A stretch of 64,000 nt of DNA from an uncultured Gemmatimonadota bacterium (lineage in GTDB: Bacteria; JAAXHH01). The notes below the pieces were generated by a model that did no database searches, was not told the origin of the DNA, and was given only the letters and a program-made list of their open reading frames with translations. Within the stretch, counting starts at the first letter, position 1. Each line of letters opens with the position of its first letter. The DNA lies in NCBI GenBank assembly GCA_951812955.1, contig OX638340.1:3328001-3392000 (forward strand). Reading direction: 5' to 3'. Shown one piece after another: positions 34,505 through 51,223 of the stretch. The translations under genes and the position numbers were made by a program.

Positions 34505-36772
34505 TCAGGCTTCCGTCCTGCCCTTCAAAGGAGCCGTCCTCCCCTTCAGGCTTCCGGCCCCACGCGTACGAGCGCGTTTCGAGCCGTTGTTGACCCTGAC
34601 CGTTTCACAGGCCTGTTCGTATAATTCCCTCTGAGACTGTAAACGACTACCCGCCTTCTTCACGTACCGGTACGTTCCATCCGACTGCAATTCCCGCGCC
34701 TTCACGTTGTCCTTCAACTGGATTTTCAAATACGCCCACAGTTCCGCCTGGAGCGCACGGTCGACGACCGGGAAGGAAACTTCAACGCGCCGGTTGAGAT
34801 TCCGGTCCATCCAGTCCGCGCTGGAAAAGTAATACTCCGGGTCTCCGTCGTTGTAGAAATAGAAGAGGCGGACGTGTTCGAGAAACCGGTCGACGATGCT
34901 GATGACGCTGATGTTCTCGCTCAGACCCGGAACACCTGGTCTCAGGCAGCATATGCCCCGAATGATCAGCTGAATCTGCACGCCGGCCTGTGACGCCTGG
35001 TACAGCTCGACGATCATGTCCGGGTCGACGAGCGAATTGATCTTGGCGATTATGAGGGCCGGCTGGCCGTTTCGGGCCCGCTCGCTTTCCCTCCGCAGCC
35101 TTTTAACCATGTCCTCCCGCATCGACGTGGGAGAAAGGATGAGGTGGTGAAAGTGCTTGGGCAGCGCGTAACCCGTCAGCAGGTTGAACAACTGCGTTAC
35201 GTCCTCGCCGAATTCCTCCTTGTCCGTGAACAGGCCGAAATCGGCGTATATCCGTGCCGTCTTGTCGTTGTAATTCCCCGTGCCCAGGTGACAGTAGCGG
35301 TGAATTGCGTCGCCTTCGCGGCGCACCACCAGGCAGGCCTTGCAATGGACCTTTATGCCTGGTATGCCGTAGATGACGTGGGCCCCCGCTTCCTCGAGCT
35401 GCCTTGCCCACTGGATGTTCGCCGCCTCGTCGAACCGGGCCTTCAATTCCAGCAGCACCGATACTTCCTTGCCGTTTTCCGCCGCCCGGGTCAGCGCCCG
35501 TGTAATCGGCGAGTTTGCGCTCACTCGGTACAGCGTCATCTTGATGGCGAGCACGCTGGGGTCTTCCGCCGCTTCCGAAACGAAACGGACTACCGCGTTG
35601 AACTGATGGAAGGGGTGGTGCAGCAGGATGTCTTCCTTCTTGATGGCGTCCCATATGGAAGGGGCTCCCTCGAAGGACATCGCCGGCTGGGGCGGGAAGG
35701 GTTCGTCCATGAGATCCGGCCGGTCGATGGCATCGTAGAACTCGATGAGATCGGAAAAGGCGGTGAAACCCTCCGTGGGGTAAAGGTCCTCCTGCTCCAG
35801 TTCCAGTTCGTCCACCAGGATGTCCAGGACGCGGGTGGATAACTCCGGATCGTACTGCAGCCGGACGGCAGCCCCGTTTCGCCGGTTTCTTATGCCCTCC
35901 TCGATGACCGTCAGCAGGTCCTCCGCGCCTTCCTCCTCGTAGTCCACGTCGGCGTCCCGCGTCACGCGGATCGACGCGCAGTTCAGCACCTCGTAGCCGT
36001 TGTAGAACAGGTCGAGGTTCATGAGGATGACGTCCTCCAGCATGAAGAACGCCTGCCGGCCGTTCTCGGACGGTAGTTCGAGGAATCGCGGCATGACGGA
36101 TGTGGGCAGGTGGATGACTGAAAGGTTTGTGTGGGGAAAGACGGACCGCTGGATCTTCCGGATTTCAGCCACCAGGCAGAGCGTGCCGTTGGCCAGGTAG
36201 GGAAAGGGATGTCCCGGGTCTACCGCCAGCGGGGTCACCACGGGCAGTATGGTCTTCCGGAAGTACTCGTCCAGGTAGGCCTTCTGCGAAGGGCTGAGCT
36301 GTTCGGGCTTGAGTATGTCGATGCCCTGCTCGGTGAGCTGCGGGAAGATCTCGTTGATGAACAAGCCGTGCTGCTTGTTGACCAGTTCGTGCATCCTGGC
36401 CGAAAGGGCGGTCATCACCTCTCTGGGACTCAGGCCGTCCGCGGTCCGCGTGGATTGGATCTGCGCATCGATCTGTCTTTTGACGCCGGCGACGCGGATC
36501 ATGAAGAATTCGTCCAGATTGGTACTGAATATGGCCAGGAACTTCACTCGTTCCAGCAGGGGCACCGACGGATCGAGCGCTTCCTCGAGCACCCGCGCGT
36601 TGAACTCCATCCAGCTGAGTTCCCGGTTGAAGAAGTGCTCCGGGCGCCAGTAGTTCGTCACCAGCGGTGCCGTGGACGGCCGGGGCTTTCGGGTGAAGCG
36701 CCGGCCGGCTCGCTTAGAGGCGATGGTTCGAACCGTTGCGGTCCTGGCGTTGTTTCTTTTTGCAGTTGGCAT
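34505..36772 (-). CDS. ppk: Polyphosphate kinase 1
   Basis: The N-terminal FFNRELSWMEFNARVLEEA motif is diagnostic of PPK1, and the two PLD-like C-terminal domains follow. Start chosen at MPTAKRNN (the ORF-track start at 36802 is also possible). Confidence 0.9.
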   Translation of the reverse strand: MPTAKRNNARTATVRTIASKRAGRRFTRKPRPSTAPLVTNYWRPEHFFNRELSWMEFNARVLEEALDPSVPLLERVKFLAIFSTNLDEFFMIRVAGVKRQIDAQIQSTRTADGLSPREVMTALSARMHELVNKQHGLFINEIFPQLTEQGIDILKPEQLSPSQKAYLDEYFRKTILPVVTPLAVDPGHPFPYLANGTLCLVAEIRKIQRSVFPHTNLSVIHLPTSVMPRFLELPSENGRQAFFMLEDVILMNLDLFYNGYEVLNCASIRVTRDADVDYEEEGAEDLLTVIEEGIRNRRNGAAVRLQYDPELSTRVLDILVDELELEQEDLYPTEGFTAFSDLIEFYDAIDRPDLMDEPFPPQPAMSFEGAPSIWDAIKKEDILLHHPFHQFNAVVRFVSEAAEDPSVLAIKMTLYRVSANSPITRALTRAAENGKEVSVLLELKARFDEAANIQWARQLEEAGAHVIYGIPGIKVHCKACLVVRREGDAIHRYCHLGTGNYNDKTARIYADFGLFTDKEEFGEDVTQLFNLLTGYALPKHFHHLILSPTSMREDMVKRLRRESERARNGQPALIIAKINSLVDPDMIVELYQASQAGVQIQLIIRGICCLRPGVPGLSENISVISIVDRFLEHVRLFYFYNDGDPEYYFSSADWMDRNLNRRVEVSFPVVDRALQAELWAYLKIQLKDNVKARELQSDGTYRYVKKAGSRLQSQRELYEQACETVRVNNGSKRARTRGAGSLKGRTAPLKGRTEA

Positions 36773-37067
36773 TACCAGGTCACCAGAGATGATTGCGGAC
36801 ATGCGGCGCGTGACGGTCTCGCGCGCACTACCGCATCACGAATGCTGTTCAGATGTCAGCGGACCGGACGGGACCGGATTGGGCCAGACCGGGCCGGATC
36901 AATATGAATTGCGCCCCGGTCCGAGTAACAATAAAGCGGGACGCAAGGCGATGTTGTCAAGCCGTCTTTACCCTGTCGATCGTGTCTAACAAGAAAAATG
37001 CACATTAGTCATATCGTCATTGCGCCGTCATGGTTTTGTCATTCGACATCGTTATAATAAGCCGTGA

Positions 37068-37613
37068 ATGAACGAAGAACTGACAAAGAATCGTGGAGAA
37101 GTCATGCAAAAGAGTCGTGGCGAAGTCATGAAAATGAATGAAGTGTTGGATGTACTTAAAGGAAGCCTGGCCAAGGTAGACGGCATGAAGTTCTTGCTGG
37201 ACTACGAGGATCTCATCTGGCGCATGGCGCCGAACGCCCAATCCGTACAGGCGTTGCTGGAAGATATGGTCGACGCGGAACAGCAACTCTGGTCCGCCCT
37301 GCTGCCAGGGTGCCTGGAATCCCGGCAACGCCGCATCTTTCAAGATCGTCTCCGCGAACGGAATCGATTCTGGCAAAAGAACGACAACCGCCTCGGCATT
37401 TTCAACCAGTTTCTCAGCAACCGGCGCATTACGCTGCTTCTGCTCGAAGATTTAGCGGGAAATGACTGGAACAGGAATGCCCCCGACGGAATGGATGAAG
37501 GATCCGTCGTCGACCAGGTCGATCGCCTGATCGAGCGCCAGAACCAGTGCCTTACCATGATCCAGGGGATACTGAACGAGCGGTTCGAAGCAATGAAGAA
37601 AAGCGCCGTATGA
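37068..37613 (+). CDS. Hypothetical protein, no recognisable family; lies in a lower-GC patch (start uncertain, possibly MKMNEV at 37129)
   Basis: 181-aa ORF, predicted largely helical. The N-terminus carries a duplicated RGEVM from a 21-bp direct repeat. Codon usage is less GC3-biased than the neighbours. Confidence 0.4.
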   Translation: MNEELTKNRGEVMQKSRGEVMKMNEVLDVLKGSLAKVDGMKFLLDYEDLIWRMAPNAQSVQALLEDMVDAEQQLWSALLPGCLESRQRRIFQDRLRERNRFWQKNDNRLGIFNQFLSNRRITLLLLEDLAGNDWNRNAPDGMDEGSVVDQVDRLIERQNQCLTMIQGILNERFEAMKKSAV

Positions 37614-37664: not shown

Positions 37665-37726
37665 CTGTCCTTGTCATGGCCTTGTATGCTGTTCGTCACA
37701 GAATCGTCAAACAACCTCTTTATAAT
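37665..37726 (+). promoter_or_regulatory. Candidate Pho box: four TGTCA-like half-sites phased exactly 11 bp apart, ending 9 bp upstream of a perfect TATAAT -10
   Basis: TGTCA at 37672, TGTAT at 37683, CGTCA at 37694, CGTCA at 37705 (plus CTGTCC at 37665). TATAAT at 37721-37726. There is no -35 hexamer, as expected for PhoB-activated promoters. Confidence 0.5.
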
Positions 37727-37816: not shown

Positions 37817-40759
37817 ATGACGAATGTCTACCTGTTCTGCAATAACCGGATCTCGAAAACCGGGCCGGGCCGTGTGGCCAGGTCGATGCTCGTCGCAGTG
37901 ATCGCCGTCGCGGTCCTGGTGGGCGCGGCCGCGGAGGCCGGCGCACAGCAGTCCGTGGGCCGCATATCCGGAACGATAGTCGACGCGGAGACCGGCGATT
38001 CCCTGATCGGCGCGACGGTGATGGTGGTGGGACTCGAACTTGGCGCGATGGCCGATCTTGAAGGCGCCTTTCTCATCCGAAACGTCCCCGCCGGCCGGCA
38101 CACCATCCTGGTATCCATGATCGGGTACGGGCAGAAGCGGGTCACCGAGATCCAGGTCGACCCCGGACAGGTGAGTCGAATAGACATCGCCGTCGAGCAG
38201 GAACTTCTCGTGGCGGACGTGGTTGAGGTGACGGCCCGGGCCCTGGAAAACACGGAAGCGGCGCTTCTGAAGCGCCGTCAAAACGCCCTTTCCATCAGTG
38301 ACGCCATCAGCGCGGAGGATATCTCGCGGGGCGCACAGGGCGACGTGGCCGCGGCCATGACCCGCGTCACCGGCGCGTCGGTGGTGGACGGCAAGTACGT
38401 CTACATTCGAGGTCTGGGCGAACGGTACAGCACCGCGCAGTTGAACGGCACGACCTTGCCGAGTACCGATCCCAACAGCCAGTCGGTGCAGATGGATATC
38501 TTCGCGACGAACCTGCTGGACAACATCACCACGGAGAAGTCCTTTACGCCGGACAAACCGGGCAACTTCACCGGCGGCAGCGTCAACGTCAAGACCAAGT
38601 CGCTTCCCGAGTCCTTCACCATGTCTTTCTCCACGTCCACGAAATACAACTCCCAGTCTTCCTTCAAGGACATGTTGAGTTACGACGGCGGTGAATACGA
38701 TTTCCTGGGCTTCGACGACGGCACCCGGGATATACCCCTGCCCCTTCAGAATCCCGAGTTGGATATACCCAGCATTACCAGTGCGTTCCGGGACCCGGAA
38801 GCCGCCCAGTTGCTGGATCTCTATTCCAAGTCGTTCGCAGATAAGTCGATGACGCCGACCACAATAAAAGGCGGACTCGGTCAGAGCTACTCATTTTCGA
38901 TGGGAAACCAGACGACGGTTTTCGACCGCCCGTTCGGGATGTTGGGAAGCGTGAGTTACAATCGAAACATTTCGGCGTACGAGAACGGCGTTTCCGGTAT
39001 ATGGAAACGCGTGTCCAGGGAATCCGAGGGGCTGAACAGAGAGCGGTTCGCCACGGACATGAGCGGTTCCGAGGAGGTGCTCTGGGGCGGACTGTTAAAC
39101 GCCACCTACCAACCGAGCATCACGCACGAAATCGGCGCCAACGTGCTATACAATCGCAGCGGTGAGAAGCTGTCCAGGTTTCAAACCGGCGCCTGGCCTT
39201 CCTCCCTGCCCGGCGACAACGTTCGGTACGAGACCCGCGTGCTGTCCTTCATCGAGCGTGAAATGCGTTCCCTGCAGTTCCGCGGCAAACATGTCCTTCC
39301 GTCCGTATCCAACATGGAAATCGAGTGGACCGGCGCTTTCATCAGGTCTACGCAGGACGAACCGGACCTGCGCTACTTCACCAACGAGTTCCGGACGGTC
39401 GACGCGGCCGGCGAAGGAACTCCGGAAGTGGACAGCTATACAATCGCGCTCTCGAACTACGCGGCACCGACGCGATACTTCAGGAATCTGGAAGAATCGA
39501 ACAGGGACTTCAGGCTGGACCTGACGCTGCCTTTCTCCCAGTGGTCCGGACAAACCGCCCGCCTCAAGGTAGGCGGCGCATACCTGGACAAGGACCACAC
39601 CTTCCGCGAGAGACGCTTTTCCTTCTTCCAGGACGACTTGCAGTACAGGAACGATCCATCAGTCTTCTTTTCCTCCGATCGCACCGGGATACTGCCGGCC
39701 GAGCTCCAAACCACCCCCGGCTTTACCCGGTTCGGGAATTTCGTGTCCGAGGATTCCAAACTCAGAAACAATTACGACGGTGATCAGCAAATCGGCGCCG
39801 GTTACCTGATGCTGGACCTGCCGCTCAGCAGGCAACTCAAGGTCGTTGGCGGCGTCCGCTACGAGTCCACCCTGCTGGACGTGGTCAGCCACGACGATTT
39901 GCTTTCGCCAGGCAGCATGGACGAGAAGGACTGGCTACCGTCGATGAACGTGGTGTACCAGGTCGTGGACGACATGAATGTACGAGGCGCTTTCAGCCGT
40001 ACCCTGGCCAGACCTTCGTTCCGCGAACTTGCGCCGTTCGCTTCCTTCCTCTTCGTCGGCGACTACACTTTCGTCGGCAACAGCGAGTTGAAGCGAACCC
40101 TTATCGAGAATTACGATCTCCGCTGGGAGTGGTTTTCACGGCCCGGCGAGATATACGCCCTCAGCTATTTTTACAAGAAGTTCGAAAACCCGATCGAGCG
40201 CGTGATTGTAACCACGAACGGCGAAATCCAGTTTCAGAATGTCGACAATGCATATGTTACGGGCGTGGAAATGGAATTCCGGAAGCAGCTCGACCAGGTC
40301 CATCCGTTTTTGAGCAACTTCCAGATCGGCGGAAATCTCTCCCTGGTCAGGTCCCAGGTGGATATCGCGCAGTCGGAACTCGCCATTATTCGAGCTCTCG
40401 ATCCAACCGCCGGGGACTCCCGAAAATTGCAGGGCCAGTCACCCTACGTGGTAAATATCGATGCCATGTACGACAACCTCGATACCGGGACCCTGGTCAG
40501 CGTTCATTACAACGTGTTCGGCGAAAGACTTGCCGAGGTCAGCACGGGCGGAACGCCGAACGCCTTCGAGCAGCCCGCGGGCATGCTCGATTTCACGGGC
40601 TCGCAGCGGCTCGGAGACCGGGTGACGCTGAAGTTTTCGGCCAAGAACCTCCTCGATCCCGACATCAAGAAAGTCCATCCCTTCAACAACGCGGAGTTCA
40701 TCCGCAGCCTCTACAAGCGGGGAAGAACGTTTACCCTGGGTCTCTCATACGGGATATAG
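37817..40759 (+). CDS. TonB-dependent outer membrane receptor (SusC/RagA-like) with N-terminal carboxypeptidase-regulatory-like domain
   Basis: Signal peptide, then a CarbopepD_reg-like beta-sandwich (GRISGTIVDAETGDSLIGATVMVVG...AGRHTILVSMIGY). Plug region (ISDAISAEDISRG...TRVTGAS...YIRGLGERYS). 980 aa total, consistent with a 22-strand barrel. Confidence 0.85.
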   Translation: MTNVYLFCNNRISKTGPGRVARSMLVAVIAVAVLVGAAAEAGAQQSVGRISGTIVDAETGDSLIGATVMVVGLELGAMADLEGAFLIRNVPAGRHTILVSMIGYGQKRVTEIQVDPGQVSRIDIAVEQELLVADVVEVTARALENTEAALLKRRQNALSISDAISAEDISRGAQGDVAAAMTRVTGASVVDGKYVYIRGLGERYSTAQLNGTTLPSTDPNSQSVQMDIFATNLLDNITTEKSFTPDKPGNFTGGSVNVKTKSLPESFTMSFSTSTKYNSQSSFKDMLSYDGGEYDFLGFDDGTRDIPLPLQNPELDIPSITSAFRDPEAAQLLDLYSKSFADKSMTPTTIKGGLGQSYSFSMGNQTTVFDRPFGMLGSVSYNRNISAYENGVSGIWKRVSRESEGLNRERFATDMSGSEEVLWGGLLNATYQPSITHEIGANVLYNRSGEKLSRFQTGAWPSSLPGDNVRYETRVLSFIEREMRSLQFRGKHVLPSVSNMEIEWTGAFIRSTQDEPDLRYFTNEFRTVDAAGEGTPEVDSYTIALSNYAAPTRYFRNLEESNRDFRLDLTLPFSQWSGQTARLKVGGAYLDKDHTFRERRFSFFQDDLQYRNDPSVFFSSDRTGILPAELQTTPGFTRFGNFVSEDSKLRNNYDGDQQIGAGYLMLDLPLSRQLKVVGGVRYESTLLDVVSHDDLLSPGSMDEKDWLPSMNVVYQVVDDMNVRGAFSRTLARPSFRELAPFASFLFVGDYTFVGNSELKRTLIENYDLRWEWFSRPGEIYALSYFYKKFENPIERVIVTTNGEIQFQNVDNAYVTGVEMEFRKQLDQVHPFLSNFQIGGNLSLVRSQVDIAQSELAIIRALDPTAGDSRKLQGQSPYVVNIDAMYDNLDTGTLVSVHYNVFGERLAEVSTGGTPNAFEQPAGMLDFTGSQRLGDRVTLKFSAKNLLDPDIKKVHPFNNAEFIRSLYKRGRTFTLGLSYGI

Positions 40760-40831
40760 CGCAGAATGACGACTTGCGGGGACGCTCGACCTTTTCAATC
40801 TCAACTGCCAGCTCAATTAAGGAGGAGTAGT

Positions 40832-43800
40832 ATGTTTCGGCGGAATGCCATCGCTGCAATTTTGGTATCGTTGTTTTTACCAGTCCTCGCAGAAGCACAA
40901 TCCAACCCGGTCGTTTCAGTCACAGACTCGGACATCGTGGGTAACGTGACCTTCACGTCGAACAACACGTACCTGCTCTCGGGCCTGGTGTTCGTGGAGG
41001 ATGGCGAGACGCTTACGATCGAACCCGGCACGGTGATCAAGGCGCGTCCGGCGGACGCCGACGGTGTGGTCTCGGCATTGATTGTAGCGCGCGGCGGGAA
41101 GATCTTTGCTGACGGTACGGCGATGGATCCCATCATCTTCACGGCCGAGGCCGACAATGTGGACGATCCGGACGACATCCTGCTCACCTCGGAAGCGGCC
41201 TCGCGGGGGTTGTGGGGCGGCGTGATCATCCTGGGCAGGGCATCGATCAACGCGGCCACGGGCATGAACAACATAGAAGGCATAGACACGACTGAGCCGC
41301 GGGGCATCTACGGCGGCGGCTCGTTCCCCGACGATAACGACAACTCGGGCGTGTTTCGCTACGTGTCGATCCGCCACGGCGGCGCGCGGATCGGAGCGGA
41401 CAACGAGATCAATGGGCTGACGATGGGCGGCGTGGGGCGTGGCACGACGATAGAGCACGTGGAGGTGTTCTACAACCAGGACGACGGGTTCGAGTGGTTC
41501 GGGGGCACGGTGAATACGCGTTACCTGGTGGCGGCCTTTGCCGGCGACGACAGCTTCGACTACGACGAGGGCTTCCGCGGTGAGCACCAGTTCTGGTTCT
41601 CTATCCAGGATCCGGCCGTAGGCGACCACGCCGGCGAGCACGACGGCGGCACCAAGCCGGAGGATGGCAGGCCGTACGCCAGTCCCACGATCCTGAACGC
41701 CACGTACATTGGGCGGGGCGCTTCCTCGATGGGGGGCAAGGCGAATAACGCCCTGATCTTCCGCGACAACGCGGGGGGCATGTATTTCAACAGCATCTTC
41801 ACCGAGTTCCAGGGCCGGATGCTGTCGATCGAGGACCTCGAGGGCAATGCGGGCACGGACAGCCGCGCGCGTCTTGAGGCCGGCGACCTTGCGTTCCAAA
41901 ACAACATCCTGGGTGCCTTCGGCGCGGGCAACACGCCATCGCAACTCGCCGCCGAGTCCGAGGATCACACGGCCATGGTGCTTTCAGATCCCGGGAACAT
42001 GATCCGAATCGTAGATCCACAATTGCAGGGCATCAACTGGAACCGCAACCGGGGGCTGGACCCACGACCCGGTACCAACAGTCCTGCCTGGGATGCGAGC
42101 CAGCTCAAGGAAGAACCCCGGAACACCGGGTTCTTTACGGACGTCGATTACGCAGGGGCATTCGGTACGGAAAACTGGGCGGCGGACTGGTCGGCCCTCG
42201 CGGACCTGGGCTATTTCAGCACCGCACCTCCACCCGAGCCGCCGGAGCCCGGGGTTGTTACTGTCACAGACTCGGACATCGTGGGTAACGTGACCTTCAC
42301 GTCGAACAACACGTACCTGCTCTCGGGCCTGGTGTTCGTGGAGGATGGCGAGACGCTTACGATCGAACCCGGCACGGTGATCAAGGCGCGTCCGGCGGAC
42401 GCCGACGGCGTGGTCTCGGCATTGATTGTAGCGCGCGGCGGGAAGATCTTTGCCGACGGTACGGCGATGGATCCCATCATCTTCACGGCCGAGGCCGACA
42501 ATGTGGACGATCCGGACGACATCCTGCTCACCTCGGAAGCGGCCTCGCGGGGGTTGTGGGGCGGCGTGATCATCCTGGGCAGGGCATCGATCAACGCGGC
42601 CACGGGCATGAACAACATAGAAGGCATAGACACGACTGAGCCGCGGGGCATCTACGGCGGCGGCTCGTTCCCCGACGATAACGACAACTCGGGCGTGTTT
42701 CGCTACGTGTCGATCCGCCACGGCGGCGCGCGGATCGGAGCGGACAACGAGATCAATGGGCTGACGATGGGCGGCGTGGGGCGTGGCACGACGATAGAGC
42801 ACGTGGAGGTGTTCTACAACCAGGACGACGGGTTCGAGTGGTTCGGGGGCACGGTGAATACGCGTTACCTGGTGGCGGCCTTTGCCGGCGACGACAGCTT
42901 CGACTACGACGAGGGCTTCCGCGGTGAGCACCAGTTCTGGTTCTCTATCCAGGATCCGGCCGTAGGCGACCACGCCGGCGAGCACGACGGCGGCACCAAG
43001 CCGGAGGATGGCAGGCCGTACGCCAGTCCCACGATCCTGAACGCCACGTACATTGGGCGGGGCGCTTCCTCGATGGGGGGCAAGGCGAATAACGCCCTGA
43101 TCTTCCGCGACAACGCGGGGGGCATGTATTTCAACAGCATCTTCACCGAGTTCCAGGGCCGGATGCTGTCGATCGAGGACCTCGAGGGCAATGCGGGCAC
43201 GGACAGCCGCGCGCGTCTTGAGGCCGGCGACCTTGCGTTCCAAAACAACATCCTGGGTGCCTTCGGCGCGGGCAACACGCCATCGCAACTCGCCGCCGAG
43301 TCCGAGGATCACACGGCCATGGTGCTTTCAGATCCCGGGAACATGATCCGAATCGTAGATCCACAATTGCAGGGCATCAACTGGAACCGCAACCGGGGGC
43401 TGGACCCACGACCCGGTACCAACAGTCCTGCCTGGGATGCGAGCCAGCTCAAGGAAGAACCCCGGAACACCGGGTTCTTTACGGACGTCGATTACGCAGG
43501 GGCATTCGGTACGGAAAACTGGGCGGCGGACTGGTCGGCCCTCGCGGACCTGGGCTATTTCAGCACCGCACCTCCACCCGAGCCGCCGGAGCCCGGGGAA
43601 CCGGAAGAAGAAGCGCCGGACGCGTTCAGCCTGTCGCAGAACAGTCCGAACCCCTTCGGCATGACCACGAATATAGAGTACGCAGTATCTTCGACGAGCC
43701 ACATACTGATCGAGGTGTACAACATTCGGGGCCAGCGGGTAGCCATGGTCGTTAACGATATCAGGCTTCCGGGGCAGTACTCGGAGATATGGGACGCTCA

Positions 43801-43897
43801 GCACCTTTCAAGCGGCGTATATTTCTACCGCTTCGAGGCTACGGCGGATGGGCGGACCGCCCACGTTTTTAACAGGAAGATGACGCTTCTGAAGTGA
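40832..43897 (+). CDS. Large secreted cell-surface protein with two near-identical 448-aa repeats (beta-helix-like) and a C-terminal T9SS type A sorting domain
   Basis: AAGGAGG RBS and a signal peptide (MFRRNAIAAILVSLFLPVLAEAQ). The repeat body is rich in GxxGG/DDGFEWFGG/GDDSFDYDEGF beta-solenoid-like motifs. The C-terminus (SPNPFGMTTNIEY...GVYFYRFEATADG...KMTLLK) is a por secretion CTD. Probably co-transcribed with the upstream TonB receptor (72-bp gap). Confidence 0.75.
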   Translation: MFRRNAIAAILVSLFLPVLAEAQSNPVVSVTDSDIVGNVTFTSNNTYLLSGLVFVEDGETLTIEPGTVIKARPADADGVVSALIVARGGKIFADGTAMDPIIFTAEADNVDDPDDILLTSEAASRGLWGGVIILGRASINAATGMNNIEGIDTTEPRGIYGGGSFPDDNDNSGVFRYVSIRHGGARIGADNEINGLTMGGVGRGTTIEHVEVFYNQDDGFEWFGGTVNTRYLVAAFAGDDSFDYDEGFRGEHQFWFSIQDPAVGDHAGEHDGGTKPEDGRPYASPTILNATYIGRGASSMGGKANNALIFRDNAGGMYFNSIFTEFQGRMLSIEDLEGNAGTDSRARLEAGDLAFQNNILGAFGAGNTPSQLAAESEDHTAMVLSDPGNMIRIVDPQLQGINWNRNRGLDPRPGTNSPAWDASQLKEEPRNTGFFTDVDYAGAFGTENWAADWSALADLGYFSTAPPPEPPEPGVVTVTDSDIVGNVTFTSNNTYLLSGLVFVEDGETLTIEPGTVIKARPADADGVVSALIVARGGKIFADGTAMDPIIFTAEADNVDDPDDILLTSEAASRGLWGGVIILGRASINAATGMNNIEGIDTTEPRGIYGGGSFPDDNDNSGVFRYVSIRHGGARIGADNEINGLTMGGVGRGTTIEHVEVFYNQDDGFEWFGGTVNTRYLVAAFAGDDSFDYDEGFRGEHQFWFSIQDPAVGDHAGEHDGGTKPEDGRPYASPTILNATYIGRGASSMGGKANNALIFRDNAGGMYFNSIFTEFQGRMLSIEDLEGNAGTDSRARLEAGDLAFQNNILGAFGAGNTPSQLAAESEDHTAMVLSDPGNMIRIVDPQLQGINWNRNRGLDPRPGTNSPAWDASQLKEEPRNTGFFTDVDYAGAFGTENWAADWSALADLGYFSTAPPPEPPEPGEPEEEAPDAFSLSQNSPNPFGMTTNIEYAVSSTSHILIEVYNIRGQRVAMVVNDIRLPGQYSEIWDAQHLSSGVYFYRFEATADGRTAHVFNRKMTLLK
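40919..43606 (+). repeat. Intragenic tandem duplication, 2 x 1344 bp, near 100% identical (a few SNPs)
   Basis: Identical text from gtcacagactcggacatcgtgggtaacgtgacc at 40919 and again at 42263; both copies end at ...gagccgccggagcccgggg. The antisense ORF-track entries are duplicated accordingly (for example the 124-aa and 73-aa ORFs recur exactly 1344 bp apart). Confidence 0.95.
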
Positions 43898-44099
43898 TCC
43901 TGAAGCCGGCATAGTGGGCCGCAACCGGTATACTTCACCGATGCGGACCGTTCAGAGAGTCGATTGGGGCCTCGCGTATGTACTTATGCGGGGCCCTGTT
44001 GTTTTATACGGCGTTCCGCCGGGGTTGACGCGGTACGGGGCCACATCTATTTTTAACACGTTGCCCCCATTGTATCAATCCACTATCCAGGACTATCGG

Positions 44100-45230
44100 A
44101 TGACTGATCGCGCCCGGGGACGCCGGATTGACCGGCGCCGTCTGCTGGACTTACTGTTCGGTCGCCTGGCCGCACTGGGCGGTATTGCGCTGATACTGAC
44201 CATACTGGCGGTCTTTGCCGTGATACTGTGGGTCATTTACCCCTTGTTCCTGTCGCCCGCGGAATACCGCTGGGATACCCCCGGTCCCGATGGAATCGAG
44301 TCCGGATACGGCATCCTGCCCCTGATCTTCGGGACCCTGAAAGGCGCGGTGTACACCCTGCTTTTTGCGGTGCCCGTTTCGGTGCTCGCCGCGCTCTACG
44401 CGTCGCAGTTTCTGCCACGGTCGCTGAAGGAAAACCTGAAACCGCTGGTGGAAATCATGGCCGCGGTGCCGAGCGTCGTGCTCGGATTTATCGGCGGCAT
44501 ATGGCTCGCACCGTTCCTGGCGTCCCACGTTTTCGCACTCTTCCTCGCGCCGGTATTTATCGCAGGCACCGTTTTGACCGCTTTTCTGGTCAGACACCAT
44601 GCCCCGGTCCGGTTTCTGGTATTTAATCATCCGGGCAGGGAATTCTGGCTGCTCCTGGCCGCCGTGTTGGCCGGGGGATGGCTGGCCCTGGAATGCGGGG
44701 CGTTGCTTGAGGCCGCCTATCTGCATGCGGGCTACGAAACGTGGCTTGAAGAATCCCTGGGACTGACCTACGAGGAACGAAACGCGATTGTCGTGGGTAT
44801 GGTCATGGGGCTGGCGGTGACCCCGATCATATTCACCATATCCGAGGAAGCGCTTTCCGCTGTGCCCCGTTCGTTTTCTGAAGGATCCATGTCGCTGGGG
44901 GCCTCACGCTGGCAGACCGCCATACGCATCGTCCTTCCCGCCGCGGGCGCCGGGATCCTGTCCGCCGTCCTGCTGGGATTCAGCAGGGCGATCGGGGAGA
45001 CCATGATCGTGCTGTTTGTTTCGGGCAATGTCCCGGCCATGGACTGGTCCGCTTTCTCCGGGTTCAGGGCGCTGTCCGCCAACGTAGCGCTCGAATTGCC
45101 GAACGCTGCGCGGGACGACAGCCTCTACCGGGTCCTGTTTTTCGCCGCCTTTCTCCTCCTCGTTTCGACTTTTGCGATTAACATCGTGGCCGAACTGGTT
45201 CGACGACGACTGAGACGGCGGTATGCCTAA
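44100..45230 (+). CDS. pstC: Phosphate ABC transporter permease PstC (long form)
   Basis: 6+ TM helices and an EAA-like loop (GASRWQTAIRIVLPAA). Order pstC-pstA-pstB-phoU. Start taken at MTDRARG; the ORF track extends to 43914. Confidence 0.8.
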   Translation: MTDRARGRRIDRRRLLDLLFGRLAALGGIALILTILAVFAVILWVIYPLFLSPAEYRWDTPGPDGIESGYGILPLIFGTLKGAVYTLLFAVPVSVLAALYASQFLPRSLKENLKPLVEIMAAVPSVVLGFIGGIWLAPFLASHVFALFLAPVFIAGTVLTAFLVRHHAPVRFLVFNHPGREFWLLLAAVLAGGWLALECGALLEAAYLHAGYETWLEESLGLTYEERNAIVVGMVMGLAVTPIIFTISEEALSAVPRSFSEGSMSLGASRWQTAIRIVLPAAGAGILSAVLLGFSRAIGETMIVLFVSGNVPAMDWSAFSGFRALSANVALELPNAARDDSLYRVLFFAAFLLLVSTFAINIVAELVRRRLRRRYA

Positions 45231-45265
45231 GCGCCGGGCGGTCCGCCCGCACGCAAGGAGATACG

Positions 45266-46693
45266 ATGGGTTCGAAGTGGTCAAAGGATGACGCCTTGAT
45301 CTGGTTGTCCGGGGGGGGTCTGGTCCTCGGCTGCCTGATGGTGGCGGGACTGTTCCTGGTGATCGTCGTACATGGACTGGACCGGTTCTGGCCCCAGGAC
45401 CTGACACGGTACACGCTGCACGACGGCGGGGTTGTCCTGGGCCACGAGGCGTCCCGTGAGGACGTACTTACAACCAACGCCAGGGGTGAGCGTTCTGTGG
45501 CATACCGTTTGAGGATCCGGACCGGTGACCGGGACCGGTATCCGGACGACTACGTCTGGCTGGAGGAAGGCCGCGTCACTTGGCGGGATGTCCCACGCGA
45601 GGCCGTGGTGGTGGAACAGGTTCGGGGCGGGGACTTATTCGGATTCCTGGATTCCTTCGTGGACGATGGCACGGTCGTCGCCCTGGGTTACGATGACGTC
45701 TGGGCACTTTACCAGGAGGGGTACCCGGAACTGGAACGGCTGCGCCGGCAGAGGTCGCTTTCTATCGTCCTGTCTTCGGCGGATGGCCGGCCGAGCACCA
45801 TTTCACTTGCTGACGTCCAGCGGATCTATACGCCAAATGCGATGACGGCGTGGACAAGGATCCGCCACTATATGGCCAGTGCGTGGTCCTACCTGTGGGC
45901 GCCCCCGCGGGACGAAAACCGCCAGGGCGGGGTCTTTCCTGCTGTCTTCGGCACGGCGGCGATGGTCATCCTCATGTCGGTCGTTGTCATGCCCTTCGGC
46001 GTGCTCGCGGCCTTCTACCTGAGAGAATACGGAAAACCGGGTCCGTTCCTGAACGCGGTACGTATCGCCGTAAACAGCCTGGCCGGAGTGCCGTCCATCG
46101 TCTTCGGGGTTTTCGGGCTCGGTTTCTTCGTGTATTTTGTGGGAGGCATCCTGGACCGTCAGTTCTTCCCGGAGGCACTTCCGGGACCGACATTCGGCCG
46201 GGGCGGCATCCTCTGGTGCTCACTGACCCTGGCCTTGCTCACATTGCCCGTGGTCATCGTGGCCGTGGAGGAAGGCCTGGCCGCCGTGCCATCGGGACTC
46301 CGCGAAGCGTCCCATGCCCTGGGTGCGACGCGGTTCGAGACGCTTTGGCGCGTCGTCGTACCCGTGGTGCTGCCATCCATTCTCACGGGTCTGATCCTGT
46401 CCGTGGCGCGGGCGGCCGGTACCGTGGCGCCGCTCATGATCGCCGGGGTCGTCGCCTTTTCTGCCGATTTGCCCGTGGACGGCGAATGGCCGTTCGTGCA
46501 CCTGGATCGCGAGTTCATGCACCTGGGATTTCATATCTTCGACACCGGTTTCAGGCCCGGCGAAGGAGATGCGGCGCTATCCATGGCCTACACTTCCACC
46601 CTGTTGCTGCTGGCCATCGTGGTCGCACTGAACGCGGCGGCGATCGGGCTCAGAAGCCGGTTGAGGAGACACTATTCGCTGGCCGCGCCATAG
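45266..46693 (+). CDS. pstA: Phosphate ABC transporter permease PstA (long form)
   Basis: EAA loop ([15 protein letters not shown]); position between pstC and pstB. Confidence 0.8.
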
Positions 46694-46766
46694 GCGTACC
46701 CGGTCCGCGTACGATCCCGATCCGCGGCATACGAGATCCCGGTCCGCTTACAAGAGGTATAATCGC

Positions 46767-47564
46767 ATGACGATGGAAAATGCGCCGTTCACGCCGAAGA
46801 TCATGCGCGAAGAAACAATCATCGATGTCGAGAACGTGTCCTTCTGGTACGGGGACAGGGCCGCGCTGAGGAACGTTTCCATGGCGATCGATCGCCATGT
46901 CATCACGGCCTTCATCGGACCGTCAGGCTGCGGCAAGACGACATTGCTGCGGCTGTTCAACCGCATGAACGACCTGGTTCCCCAGACCCGCATGACGGGA
47001 TCGATCCGGATGAACGGAGCAGACATCTACGGCCCGGATACCGACGTCACGCGTCTGCGCCGGCGCGTGGGCATGGTCTTCCAGCAACCGAATCCCTTTC
47101 CCAAGTCGATCTATGAGAACGTAGCCTATGGCCCCCGAATCCATGGGGTGAAGTCCGGGGAATTTCTCGACGAGATCGTGGAACGGTGCCTGCGAAGGAC
47201 GGTGCTGTGGGACGAGGTTCAGGATCGGCTCGAAGAAAGCGCGCTCAAACTCTCCGCCGGACAACAGCAACGGCTTTGTATCGCGCGGGCGGTCGCCGTC
47301 GAACCGGAAGTCCTGCTCATGGACGAGCCGTGCTCGTCACTGGACCCGGTCGCCACGTCCAGGATCGAGGAATTAATGCTTGATCTGAAGGATGATTACA
47401 CCATTGTTATCGTGACACACAATATGCAGCAGGCAGCGCGTGTGTCGGAATACACCGGGTTCATGCTCAAGGGCGAACTGGTGGAAATGGGTGTGACCGA
47501 CGTGATGTTCACCACGCCGGGGGACCGGCGCACGGAGGATTACATTACGGGTCGTGCGGGATAG
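46767..47564 (+). CDS. pstB: Phosphate ABC transporter ATP-binding protein
   Basis: Walker [10 protein letters not shown], signature LSAGQQQRL, Walker B LLMDEP; about 265 aa as in PstB. Confidence 0.9.
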
Positions 47565-47595
47565 CGACCCGTGATACTGACCGAATAAGGCGACC

Positions 47596-48300
47596 ATGGA
47601 GACCCACCTTCAGCAACAACTGGAAGACCTGAAATCCGCCCTGCTGAGGATGGCGGCGCTGGTCGAGGAACAGATCGCGCGGTCGATTACCGCTATGATG
47701 GAGCGGGACGTGGAATTGTGCGACCAGGTCATCCGCGGAGATCAGCCCATTGACGCCATGGAACTGGAGATCGACGATCAGTGTATCAGGTTGCTTGCTC
47801 TCCAGCATCCCATCGCGCGGGACCTTCGCTTCGTTGCGGCCAGCATGAAGATTACGATCGACCTGGAACGGTTGGGCGACATCGCAGTCAACATCGCCAA
47901 GAAAACGAAACGGCTCGTGGGGATGCCCCTCCTGAAACCGATCGTCGACATTCCGCGCATGGCCGAAATGTCCCAGTCCATGGTGAAGGACAGCCTCAAC
48001 GCCTTCGTCCGCGGAGACGAGCAACTGGCCGTGGACGTCTGCGTAAGGGACGAAGCGGTAAATCAACTGCAGGACCAGGTCTTCCAGGATCTGGTGACTG
48101 CCATGGTGGAAGATTCGGCGACGGTGCCCCAGGCGCTCCAGTTGATCTTCATATCCCGCCACGTCGAACGGCTCGCAGATCACGCCACGAACATCGCCGA
48201 AGGGGTGGTGTATTTCTCAGAAGGCCGCGTGATCAAGCATCATGGGAATGACGATCCGAATCAGCCACCCAATCGTCCAGTATCCGGTGGGCCTGCGTGA
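47596..48300 (+). CDS. phoU: Phosphate signalling complex protein PhoU
   Basis: Two PhoU repeats (E/DxxxD metal-binding motifs: DQVIRGD, ELEIDDQ and VCVRDEAVNQ). Follows pstB. Confidence 0.85.
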   Translation: METHLQQQLEDLKSALLRMAALVEEQIARSITAMMERDVELCDQVIRGDQPIDAMELEIDDQCIRLLALQHPIARDLRFVAASMKITIDLERLGDIAVNIAKKTKRLVGMPLLKPIVDIPRMAEMSQSMVKDSLNAFVRGDEQLAVDVCVRDEAVNQLQDQVFQDLVTAMVEDSATVPQALQLIFISRHVERLADHATNIAEGVVYFSEGRVIKHHGNDDPNQPPNRPVSGGPA

Positions 48301-49240
48301 CCGTATCCACCTGGACGAGGCTGGTCCGCAGGTGAGACGCGTTGGGAAAGCCCTTGAAGTAGGAAGCGAAGAACTTGCGCATTTCCATCACGCCGACCTT
48401 TTCCCCCTTGTACTCCACCATCATGCCCAGGTGATCCCGCGCGAGACGGACCCGCTCGGAGAATGTGGGGGTCACGTCGCCGGAGAAGATGTAGGGGTTG
48501 TCCCGCGCGGCCCGGGCGATCATCACGCCGGCGCATCCGGTCTCATCCACCATGCGCACCGCGTCCTGGTAGGTGAACACGTCGCCGTTCCCGAAGATCG
48601 GCACAGGGGAGACTTCCGCGGCGCGCGCGATCCATGACCAGTCCGCGGTCCCGTTGAACTTCTGGGCTACGGTCCGGGCGTGCACCGCCACGGCGTGGGC
48701 GCCGGAATCCGCGGCGCGTTTAACCACCTCCAGAATGCTGATGTTGTCGTGGTCCCAGCCCAGCCGCGTCTTGATGATCACCGGGATCGAGACCGCGTCG
48801 GCCACGCTGCGCACCGCGTTCATCATCCGGTCGATGTCCTTGAGGAAGGCGGCGCCGGAGTCTGATCGCAGGATCTTGGGCACGGAGCATCCGAAGTTGA
48901 TGTCCATGATCTGCGCGCCTTTATCCTCCAACACCCGGGCCCCTTCCACCATGCGGCCGATGTCGTTCCCGTAGATCTGCGCCGCGAGCAGCGACATCCC
49001 GGTATCGCGGTAGATGTCGGCGTCGCAGAAGTTCATCATCTGAAGCGTCTTCGGGTTCTCGTGGAGAATGGCGTTGCAGTTGATGAATTCCACGCCGACC
49101 ATCTGTGCACCCATTTTCGCGCAGATCAGCCGGAACGGCCAATTGCTGATGCCCGCCATGGGCGCCAGCGTGAGGACCGGCATGCCCGGTCTGAGCGACT
49201 TTATGCGATGAGGGCCTATGGTTATTTCGTGAGCCATGGT
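48233..49240 (-). CDS. tRNA-dihydrouridine synthase (DusB-like)
   Basis: LAPMAGISNWPFR FMN-binding N-terminus, catalytic Cys in DINFGCSVPK, and a C-terminal helical tRNA-binding domain. Its 3' end overlaps convergent phoU by about 68 bp. Confidence 0.85.
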   Translation of the reverse strand, partial: TMAHEITIGPHRIKSLRPGMPVLTLAPMAGISNWPFRLICAKMGAQMVGVEFINCNAILHENPKTLQMMNFCDADIYRDTGMSLLAAQIYGNDIGRMVEGARVLEDKGAQIMDINFGCSVPKILRSDSGAAFLKDIDRMMNAVRSVADAVSIPVIIKTRLGWDHDNISILEVVKRAADSGAHAVAVHARTVAQKFNGTADWSWIARAAEVSPVPIFGNGDVFTYQDAVRMVDETGCAGVMIARAARDNPYIFSGDVTPTFSERVRLARDHLGMMVEYKGEKVGVMEMRKFFASYFKGFPNASHLRTSLVQVDTVTQAHRILDDWVADSDRHSHDA

Positions 49241-49446
49241 TTCGTGTCGGTTTTGCGTGTTCGCCTTTGACGTTGACAACGACTAACCGTGCAGATAGAT
49301 TGCGTCACGACTGACTGTCCGCGTTGAAGTTAAGCCGAATTCCCGTTTAGTCGCAAGCTGTTTGTCCTCTACACGGGACTTATCGATCCCGTACCCGGCG
49401 TTCCGTATCTTCGCGGGACGCCGAGACATCATGGGAGCGTGTCATT

Positions 49447-49764
49447 ATGGCAGTTGCCTACGTACCGGATCGGAAGCGTTTTTCGGAAGAGAAGTTTCAG
49501 AAGGTAAATCTCTTCGATACCGAACGCATGTTCTGCGATATCTACTGTTTCGAGCCGGGACAGGAACAGAAGGCTCACAGCCACGCCGAAAACGACAAGA
49601 TCTACTACGTGCTGGAGGGCGCCGGTGATTTCACGGTCGGTGAGGATACTGTAAAGGGCGTTCCCGGTACGGCGGTACTGTGTCCCCCGGGCGTGGACCA
49701 CGGCGTGTGCAACACGGGTGGTGAACGTCTGGTCGTGCTGGTGTTTATGGCGCCCCATCCATGA
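49447..49764 (+). CDS. Cupin-domain protein
   Basis: 105 aa; the cupin motif HSHAENDKIYYVLEGAGDF ... PPGVDHGVCNTG supplies two His plus Glu then a His ligand set. Confidence 0.7.
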   Translation: MAVAYVPDRKRFSEEKFQKVNLFDTERMFCDIYCFEPGQEQKAHSHAENDKIYYVLEGAGDFTVGEDTVKGVPGTAVLCPPGVDHGVCNTGGERLVVLVFMAPHP

Positions 49765-50053
49765 ACGGATCGGTTCGGCCGATTGCGGATGTATTCGACG
49801 TTCCGACCGGCGCCGGACACGATGCGTGCAGTATCCGAGCCGTCCTTTACGATCTCCGACCCGGACACGGCCCGTTCCCAACCCGCCGCCCCGGGAACGC
49901 GCTAAGGCATCGGTCCGCGTAAGCCGGCCGCTGGCCGTCATCTGGGTGTCCCTTCAGAATTTTCTATATCTAATCATTGACACGTGTATATTATAACTAT
50001 ATATTTAGCCTAGTCTAAAAATAGAGAGGTTATTGCACCGGTTATAAACACAA

Positions 50054-51223
50054 ATGAATCGATACGACAGAATACTTCTCTCGATAGCCGTTGCGCTCCT
50101 GGCGGCCATCCGGGTGGATCCAGCCGCGGCGCAGGACGCGTCAGTTGAAGCAGAGCCGGGTCTTATTCCCGGTCACATCGAAGTCGGCGGCGTGGTGCAA
50201 CTTTCGGCATCCCACGAACAGTCGTACGGAGGCGGAAGCACCACGTCCACCGCCGCCGAGCAACTGGAACTCGGGATCGGGATCGAACTGCACGAGTGGG
50301 TTGGAACCGAGGTCATCTGGATCCACGAACATGAAGACGAGGAAGCCGGCGACGAGCATGGACACGACCTGGGATTCTTGACGGCCACGGTCATTGTCGG
50401 TCCCCACGAAGGCTCCTGGTGGCTAAAGGGCGGGGTGCAATTCCTGCCCTTCACCCTATTCGAACTCGCCAGTGTGCACGCCGTACACGACGCGACCATT
50501 GGACCCTTCGAGTCGGCCGCGATCGTCGACCCGTTGTCCTTCGAGTACGGAGAAAAGCTGGAGAAATCGTTGCAGCTGGGGGTTTCGGTGGGTCAATTCG
50601 AAGGAAGTCTCTTCGGTTTCTACGGTGACGACCCACGGTCGTCCGGCAACAGGGCTGGATACGGTGCTGCGATCGGGTACAAGGATGCCCTGGACAGTGG
50701 TCCCGAATTCGCGGTAAACGTTTCTTTCATCGATGATCTCGGCGGACTGGATCTTTTCGCGGAGGAGCTATTCGATGAATCAGGGGCGGCAGATGGAGCG
50801 CACCAACGCACCGACGCGAACGAAGATGACCGTGTTCCCGGCTGGGCGGCGGCCACGCAGCTTGCGTTTCAGTACCTGACGGTTACGGGTGAATTCATGA
50901 TTGCCCAGGACCGGTTCAGTCCCTCGGTACTAACATTCGGTGACCGGGGGGCCCGGCCTTCGGTATGGGTACTCGAGGCTGGTTTCGCCTTCGAGTTGGC
51001 GGGTAGATCGGGAGAAGTCGTAGTGGCAAGCCACGGGACCTCGGAAGCGGCCGGCCTGGCCCTGCCCGCGACGCGATTCGTGGCGGCTCTCAACGTCGAC
51101 CTGTGGAACGAGAGGCTGATCGGCACCGTCGAATGGGTACGTGACAGCGACTACGGGACGTCGCACGACGGCACCGGTGGAGTCTTGAATACATACACCG
51201 CTCAATTGGGCATGGAATTCTAA
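50054..51223 (+). CDS. Putative outer-membrane beta-barrel protein/porin with an acidic His/Glu-rich N-terminal segment
   Basis: Signal peptide (LLSIAVALLAAIRVDPAAAQ), alternating amphipathic strands, and a C-terminal aromatic residue (…AQLGMEF) typical of BAM substrates. HEHEDEEAGDEHGHD motif near the N-terminus. Confidence 0.55.
   Translation: MNRYDRILLSIAVALLAAIRVDPAAAQDASVEAEPGLIPGHIEVGGVVQLSASHEQSYGGGSTTSTAAEQLELGIGIELHEWVGTEVIWIHEHEDEEAGDEHGHDLGFLTATVIVGPHEGSWWLKGGVQFLPFTLFELASVHAVHDATIGPFESAAIVDPLSFEYGEKLEKSLQLGVSVGQFEGSLFGFYGDDPRSSGNRAGYGAAIGYKDALDSGPEFAVNVSFIDDLGGLDLFAEELFDESGAADGAHQRTDANEDDRVPGWAAATQLAFQYLTVTGEFMIAQDRFSPSVLTFGDRGARPSVWVLEAGFAFELAGRSGEVVVASHGTSEAAGLALPATRFVAALNVDLWNERLIGTVEWVRDSDYGTSHDGTGGVLNTYTAQLGMEF

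Follow-up and report, generated by a model that had tools for sequence, protein, structure and literature searches.

The surface lipoprotein ElpS (CC0170) of Caulobacter crescentus, a protein of about 50 kDa, responds to phosphate starvation by induction and has been connected with extracellular phosphatase activity, and the published arrangement of its locus is elpS (CC0170), the TonB-dependent receptor CC0171 and gsp genes (PMC2996285). In Flavobacterium johnsoniae, Lidbury et al. described the FI/FII/FIII lipoproteins (Fjoh_3856, Fjoh_0546, Fjoh_4889), which are among the exoproteins most strongly induced by phosphate depletion, are modelled with a pectate-lyase- or polygalacturonase-like fold and are 31-36% identical to ElpS; Fjoh_0546 and Fjoh_3856 lie beside a low-phosphate-induced transporter, Fjoh_0546 in a phoBR cluster, and Fjoh_4889 is listed as an orphan (PMC8115612). 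Price described BT4055/BT4056 of Bacteroides thetaiotaomicron as a TonB-dependent transporter and a putative surface 'lid', BT4056 being a protein of the pectin-lyase superfamily, then without a Pfam family, that is 40% identical to Fjoh_0546, is a distant relative of ElpS, and is found close to the transporter on the same strand in 621 genera of Bacteroidota and Proteobacteria (bioRxiv 10.1101/2023.03.17.533168). Here we analysed a 64,000-nucleotide stretch of DNA, hereafter the window, from an uncultured Gemmatimonadota bacterium (GTDB lineage Bacteria; JAAXHH01; assembly GCA_951812955.1, contig OX638340.1, positions 3,328,001 to 3,392,000 of the forward strand), in which a gene for a type IX secretion (T9SS) surface protein carries two consecutive and almost identical copies of a large beta-helix module. 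The reading that we favour, and consider likely, is that of a real module duplication in an ElpS-type phosphate-uptake protein, the copies of which have been kept alike by recombination.

ElpS resembles the window module in that its size is that of one module and that it is encoded beside a TonB-dependent receptor. It differs in having one module, an N-terminal lipid anchor and type II secretion-dependent release, whereas in the window protein a plain signal peptide precedes two modules and a C-terminal T9SS domain takes the place of the N-terminal lipoprotein anchor of the described members, a variant architecture. The FI/FII/FIII proteins differ likewise, being single-module lipoproteins without described tandem modules or concerted evolution. 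The lid idea proposed for BT4056 assumes one lipoprotein per barrel, and proteins that are tethered at the far C terminus and comprise two to five 48-kDa modules fit it poorly. The window pair is also similar to the SusC/SusD pairs of Bacteroidota, since both combine a TonB-dependent barrel, with an N-terminal carboxypeptidase-regulatory-like domain, and a surface partner encoded next to it, although the partner in the window is a beta-helix and not the tetratricopeptide-repeat-like SusD fold. Assignment to a SusCD-type pair was rejected: there was no SusD Pfam match, and TIGR04056 (SusC/RagA) scored 35.8 bits against a cut-off of 368, in the N-terminal domain only. Long in-frame and near-identical repeats that vary in number between strains and are homogenised within the gene are known from the Rib and alpha C proteins of group B streptococci, where the repeats are of about 80 residues and serve immune evasion; the unit in the window is, by contrast, a 448-residue and probably functional module that belongs to nutrient uptake and is under purifying selection.

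Base-by-base comparison of the two copies (40919-42254 and 42263-43598) at an offset of 1344 nt showed that 1334 of 1336 nt are identical. The two mismatches (41065 T vs 42409 C and 41110 T vs 42454 C) are synonymous and lie in the third codon positions of Gly100 and Ala115; within the tract both modules have the same protein sequence, and the junction alone differs (NPVVS vs PGVVT). A direct-repeat search of the gene region returned a single repeat family with a start-to-start spacing of 1344 nt, and this unit is the only long direct repeat in the whole 64 kb. Tandem Repeats Finder did not report the 1344-nt repeat because its maximum period is 500. The period equals 448 codons and is in frame within the open reading frame (ORF) 40766-43897. 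At the left edge of the tract, 40909-40918 and 42253-42262 match at 7 of 10 nt, and at the right edge the last 8 nt of the second unit as drawn by the first-pass annotation (43599-43606) match 42255-42262 at none of 8; since the edges fail to match fully, the array comprises about 1.99 copies and not exactly 2.0. The junction in the window reads GAGCCCGGGGTTGTTACTGTCACAGA, is in frame and is found nowhere else in the gene, and copy 2 opens with GTT GTT ACT where copy 1 has GTC GTT TCA, which amounts to 3 differences in 9 nt. A match of 1336 nt with two mismatches cannot be explained by chance, and the repeat is a genuine in-frame tandem duplication of one complete 448-residue module. The near-perfect 1344-bp (448-aa) tandem duplication reported by the first-pass annotation is thus confirmed, with the whole large domain copied. 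Its remark that a few substitutions are visible in the translation does not hold within the tract, where both changes are silent.

The likely true start of the gene is the ATG at 40832, which is preceded by AAGGAGG, a strong ribosome-binding site, and the gene calls of two relatives (P0043, 98% identical, and P0048, 96%) start at the same methionine. The signal peptide, read by eye, has no lipobox cysteine. The sorting domain (Por_Secre_tail), at residues 961-1026 of the 1043-aa ORF, reached 28.1 bits with PF18962 (cut-off 27) and 28.9 bits with TIGR04183 (cut-off 23), so that the earlier description of the product as a T9SS surface protein stands. A Pro/Glu-rich linker (43599-43645) separates module 2 from this domain. 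Structure prediction made use of a 38-row alignment. In the full-length structure model, the linker has a predicted local distance difference test (pLDDT) score below 50 and is followed by a beta-sandwich at the C-terminal domain; the domains are confident, the predicted template modelling score (pTM) is 0.54, and the two modules appear as independent units without a confident mutual orientation. As modelled, the modules look like beads on a string rather than a rigid rod. The module itself is assigned to PF28492 (Beta_helix_4) by the precomputed annotation of P0043 and of all 120 listed homologues, and it was found to have the right-handed parallel beta-helix (pectin-lyase-like) fold. Local Pfam-A and NCBIfam scans gave no model matching the module, the local copy of Pfam being one without PF28492. 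A PDB sequence search gave no match at E values up to 1, Foldseek against PDB returned only weak generic beta-helix matches, every one with E above 1e-3, and a literature search for PF28492 or Beta_helix_4 found nothing.

The number of modules varies among the relatives of this gene, from 1 to about 5 across the family. The closest loci have a single module: a Logan contig (L001) is colinear with window positions 39074-50580 at 95-98% nucleotide identity, and an ENA contig (L083) is colinear at 96-97.5%. One module is also present in four genomes labelled Latescibacterota or 'bacterium' (L003-L006), at 77-81% protein identity. Two modules, 90% alike, were found in P0003 (81% protein identity), on contig ctg336969l, whose name is of long-read style, and three modules in P0001 (76% protein identity), on a 3.9-Mb contig. 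The two-module gene of L002 (contig ctg336969l), about 80% identical in nucleotides, has the same ...EPG|VVT... junction form as the window. Compared with the L001 module, the two window copies share 34 differences, and each copy has one private change. The synonymous divergence (dS) is 0.006 between the window copies and 0.08-0.10 between strains. Because the dS of the copies is far below that between strains and the 34 differences are shared, the lineage had already separated from the single-module strains when the modules were last duplicated or homogenised. In another two-module relative (P0093, 735 aa, on a 24-kb ENA contig), the C-terminal third reads as frameshifted Arg/Pro-rich nonsense, so that the gene is a pseudogene or else the assembly has an indel within the repeat.

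Modules of the same protein resemble each other throughout the family. The best intra-protein module identity is 69-98% in all 106 of the 106 multi-module homologues, as against a mean of about 48-55% between proteins of different lineages, and the nearest neighbour of a module lies inside the same protein for 233 of the 276 modules. Across lineages, two modules from the same position resemble each other no more than two from different positions do, and positional orthology survives among close relatives only; an ancient multi-module architecture with positional orthology was consequently dropped, as there was no diagonal signal across lineages. Among three-module proteins of different lineages, each module, whether first, second or third, most often has its best match in the other protein's first module; this N-terminal module lies at the greatest distance from the anchor and may be under the strongest constraint or may usually act as the donor in conversion.

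Individual loci retain identical runs between modules, with 809 nt in L041 (8624-11390), 716 nt between adjacent modules in L007 (8723-11300), 1143 nt in both L024 (10133-12700) and L035, and 288 nt in L010, all of them longer than in every permutation. In L041, divergence reaches about 30% on either side of the run, and sequence diverged to a similar extent also borders the tracts of L007 and L024; the mosaic pattern is clear in these three loci as well as in L035 and L010. Identity confined to a core, with divergence in the two flanks, indicates gene conversion, since a recent duplication cannot yield such a pattern. This places the window at the far end of a homogenisation process that runs through the whole family. 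The first-pass annotation had suggested a very recent duplication or ongoing gene conversion and copy-number variation, and this agrees with the single-module strains 95-98% identical in DNA, the 34 shared differences and the conversion tracts elsewhere in the family. A second near-perfect duplicate was observed in an unrelated Bacteroidota genome (L068, 4520-7201), which has its own two-module gene, 42% identical in protein to the window module; its modules are 99.6% identical in DNA, with a perfect run of 1317 nt.

Very probably the module belongs to the family of ElpS, BT4056 and Fjoh_0546, an assignment made from relatives and genomic context. A pairing like that of BT4055/BT4056 recurs widely: a homologous receptor is encoded on the same strand in 69 of the 82 related loci, mostly directly beside the gene, and these loci span Latescibacterota, Rhodothermales, Ignavibacteria, many Bacteroidota, Zixibacteria, Fibrobacterota, Opitutaceae and Gemmatimonadales. 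In Indioceanicola, Alteromonas, Sphingomonas, Brevundimonas and Parabacteroides, too, the receptor adjoins the module gene and shares its strand. The gene order module protein, receptor and type II secretion genes, seen in Sphingomonas and Indioceanicola, matches the elpS arrangement. Proteins of PF28492 in Brevundimonas (Caulobacteraceae), Sphingomonas and Luteimonas are lipoproteins about 500 aa long, in which the lipobox falls at about residues 17-20 and next to which a receptor is encoded; the proteobacterial relatives carry LSAC or LAAC lipoboxes. Homologue and cluster searches directed at Caulobacter got as far as these three genera and did not arrive at Caulobacter. The window module matched the Sphingomonas lipoprotein P0121 at 41% identity over 212 aa (E 7e-32) and the receptor-adjacent proteins of Parabacteroides, Alteromonas and Brevundimonas with E values of 1e-34 to 1e-48. 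In a search of plasmid proteins, the module turned up in Pseudoalteromonas, Alteromonas, Marinobacter, Indioceanicola and Sphingomonas, with 25-41% identity, and there were further matches in gut Bacteroides, Phocaeicola and Parabacteroides. The end of the window module (...FFTDVDYAGAF, residues 344-420) has as its only match a weak one (E 0.93) to residues 59-131 of P0121, which are near the N terminus and before the beta-helix; this hints that module boundaries may be circularly shifted between the window and proteobacterial branches.

Genes of phosphate uptake and its control accompany the pair in distant genomes, with pst or pho genes nearby in at least five separate lineages. The order in an Opitutaceae genome is the pair, porin O/P, two pstS genes, pstCAB and phoU; in Pontibacter, phoU-pstBAC-pstS and porin O/P are divergent from the pair and a T9SS PhoX is near. 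On the Alteromonas macleodii plasmid pBGP9 (L085, 1-15218) the genes for phoB, phoR, pstS, a 2-oxoglutarate (2OG)-Fe(II) oxygenase, a 1356-aa three-module protein and the receptor come in this order, followed by DUF3450, ExbB, ExbB, ExbD and TonB, and together make up a complete, plasmid-borne uptake island linked to Pho.

As shown in Table 1, the surroundings of the gene in the window are of the same kind. No pstS or phosphate-porin homologue was found in the 64-kb window or in the loci of the close relatives L001 and L003-L006, and in the window clade the receptor/beta-helix pair stands where pstS usually heads the pst operon. The promoter-like block P2 consists of four 7-mers at an exact 11-bp period that end 10 nt before TATAAT, and 7-mers so spaced and so placed are the layout of the Escherichia coli Pho box. 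The pattern GTCA-N7-GTCA-N7-GTCA had one match, at P1, and GTCA-N7-GTCA-N11-TATAAT, a pattern picked after seeing the sites, occurred in the 64 kb at P1 and P2 only (expected 0.00). The P2 block is kept upstream of the receptor in L083 and in L003-L005, relatives down to about 80% protein identity, and upstream of the L006 receptor there is a textbook triple repeat, TTGTCAT-N4-CCGTCAC-N4-TTGTCAT. The exact window pattern had no match in the other fetched loci, where the block is present with one or two substitutions.

Table 1. Coordinates of the two-module gene, its parts and its neighbours in the window.
Feature	Position	Strand	Evidence or remarks
ppk1 (polyphosphate kinase 1), divergent	34505..36802	-	TIGR03705 882 bits; all four PP_kinase Pfam domains
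Pho-box-like promoter P1, before ORF 37068-37613	37015..37058	+	CGTCATT-N4-CGTCATG-N4-TGTCATT, TATAAT about 10 nt downstream
Pho-box-like promoter P2, before receptor gene	37671..37726	+	TTGTCAT-N4-TTGTATG-N4-TCGTCAC-N4-TCGTCAA, TATAAT 37721-37726
TonB-dependent receptor, 980 aa	37817..40759	+	CarboxypepD_reg, Plug and beta-barrel domains (Pfam, NCBIfam)
T9SS-anchored two-module beta-helix gene	40832..43897	+	1021 aa from ATG; mechanical ORF starts at 40766
Sec signal peptide MFRRNAIAAILVSLFLPVLAEA	40832..40897	+	Judged by eye from the translation; followed by QS
Repeat copy 1, beta-helix module 1	40919..42254	+	Domain as modelled 40904-42253
Unique junction	42255..42262	+	With the partly matching 42253-42262 encodes ...EPG-VVT...
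Repeat copy 2, beta-helix module 2	42263..43598	+	1334/1336 nt the same as copy 1
T9SS type A C-terminal sorting domain	43646..43894	+	PF18962 and TIGR04183 above cut-offs
Terminator-like hairpin between beta-helix gene and pstC	43965..43998	+	14 pairs, then TTGTTTTATA; consensus scan only
pstC, 376 aa	44101..45230	+	TIGR02138 213 bits; start from the L001 gene call and the sequence
pstA	45266..46693	+	TIGR00974 212.9 bits
pstB	46767..47564	+	TIGR00972 385.8 bits
phoU	47596..48300	+	98% identical to the L001 gene bearing PF01895 PhoU

The ORF that follows P1 (37068-37613, + strand) encodes 181 aa without a family match, has this Pho-box-like promoter of its own and opens with 2.5 copies of a 24-nt tandem repeat (37081-37139). 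The conserved sequence that matches window positions 36925-36975 sits, in L003-L005, about 100 nt upstream of the receptor Pho box, with no space for such an ORF; the ORF thus has the look of a roughly 650-nt insertion by which the promoter was duplicated. Further downstream, the mechanical ORF 43914-45230 overruns the strong hairpin and a promoter-like site, and pstC probably starts at the ATG given in the table.

How the two copies came to be so similar can be explained in more than one way. If the duplication were brand-new, one unequal crossing-over or replication slip in the recent ancestry, without any later conversion, would have produced it; this accounts for an identity that covers essentially the whole module, for the single module of the nearest strains and for the one private change per copy. 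Such an origin is harder to reconcile with the 3 differences in the first 9 nt of copy 2, as compared with 2 in 1336 elsewhere, for which our own estimate is about 4e-7 under a uniform rate, or with a junction form that is common to a relative only 80% identical, and conversion is demonstrably active in other family members. A microhomology join at the CCCGG shared by the two edges was tried as the origin of the junction and dropped, as it would be out of frame. Taken with the 9-nt patch and the junction form of L002, the failed join is suggestive of an older junction with a homogenised interior, and a duplication without later conversion seems to us unlikely, while keeping some weight. Several observations count against the reading that we favour. 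In the mosaic test, the identical tract of the window stops only about 10 nt short of either module edge, which leaves the 9-nt junction patch as the one feature that bears on conversion, and a fresh duplication fits nearly as well; and that patch at the start of copy 2 also varies between strains. The assembly collection has no record of the exact two-module protein, and neither the exact junction nor a degenerate junction pattern was found in JGI metagenome contigs. Membership in the ElpS family was drawn from relatives and context, ElpS, BT4056 and Fjoh_0546 having been compared by description. Finally, the hairpin and the promoter-like site that follows it before pstC (44025-44053) suggest that pstCAB-phoU may be transcribed apart from the receptor/beta-helix pair.

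An assembly artefact, in which the assembler went round a repeat loop the wrong number of times in a genome with one module or another number of them, is in our view very improbable. Short-read assemblers have difficulty with near-identical tandem repeats of 1.3 kb, the exact protein is missing from other records as stated above, and the close relatives with one module come from short-read assemblies. The junction, however, is a unique in-frame sequence that could not come from a one-module genome, which makes a pure artefact unlikely; moreover, the copies are told apart by their two synonymous changes, the contig is unbroken through the repeat with nothing else duplicated in 64 kb, and the relatives with two and three modules lie on a contig named in the manner of long-read assemblies and on one of megabase size. 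The genome may carry more than two copies. Least probable of all, to the point that we give it hardly any credence, is a contingency locus under diversifying selection, the reading of the first-pass annotation; on this view the repeat would generate antigenic or functional variation or on/off switching. The surface exposure of the protein and the difference in module number between close strains would suit such a locus. The ratio of nonsynonymous (dN) to synonymous divergence for the module was, however, 0.12 (window vs L001), 0.18 (window vs L083) and 0.22 (L001 vs L083), values that indicate purifying selection between strains, and dN between the two window copies was 0; modules that encode the same protein point to homogenisation and do not bear out a surface protein under diversifying selection. 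Since the unit is of 448 codons and in frame, a change in copy number keeps the frame and cannot switch the gene off, and Tandem Repeats Finder detected no short tandem repeat in the gene or in the promoter at 37671-37726, so that neither a simple-sequence tract nor an on/off switch was found to justify the term contingency locus. The context is, besides, one of nutrient uptake and not of host interaction.

Under the favoured reading, real duplication with copies kept alike, the near-identity would result from homologous recombination between modules, by conversion, which the relatives document, or by unequal crossing-over that re-created the second copy, in an event that would have followed the split from the single-module relatives. 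The protein would be secreted and held on the cell surface by its C-terminal domain via the type IX secretion system, where the modules may bind or process a phosphorus-containing substrate and hand it over to the receptor; the Pst system might then import the phosphate released. Extra modules would probably add binding sites or reach, not diversity.

The origin of the repeat is ordinary homologous recombination; less ordinary are the family itself, the T9SS-anchored multi-module architecture, and family-wide conversion alongside a changing module number. In Caulobacter and Flavobacterium, proteins of the ElpS family rank among those that phosphate starvation induces most strongly, and the family is paired with a TonB-dependent transporter in hundreds of genera. 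To these, the locus adds T9SS-anchored forms with two to five modules, the number of which differs between strains 95-98% identical in DNA. Module genes may be miscounted in short-read assemblies, and the caution of the first-pass annotation about copy number in such assemblies is fair. We put forward, as a speculation that we think more probably wrong than right, that the multi-module T9SS-tethered members act as surface 'fishing lines' rather than lids and feed a phosphorus-rich polyanion to the partner receptor. If so, the beta-helix modules would seize or break down such a polymer, for instance polyphosphate, teichoic-acid-like phosphodiester polymers, extracellular DNA or phosphoglycans, the pair would stand in the usual place of pstS at the head of the pst operon in the window clade, and recombination would tune the module number adaptively while conversion keeps every module fully active. 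As multi-module, T9SS-anchored forms homogenised by recombination are a poor fit to a one-to-one lid, the number of binding sites or the reach from the surface may matter, and natural alleles with one, two and three modules are available for use in experiments.

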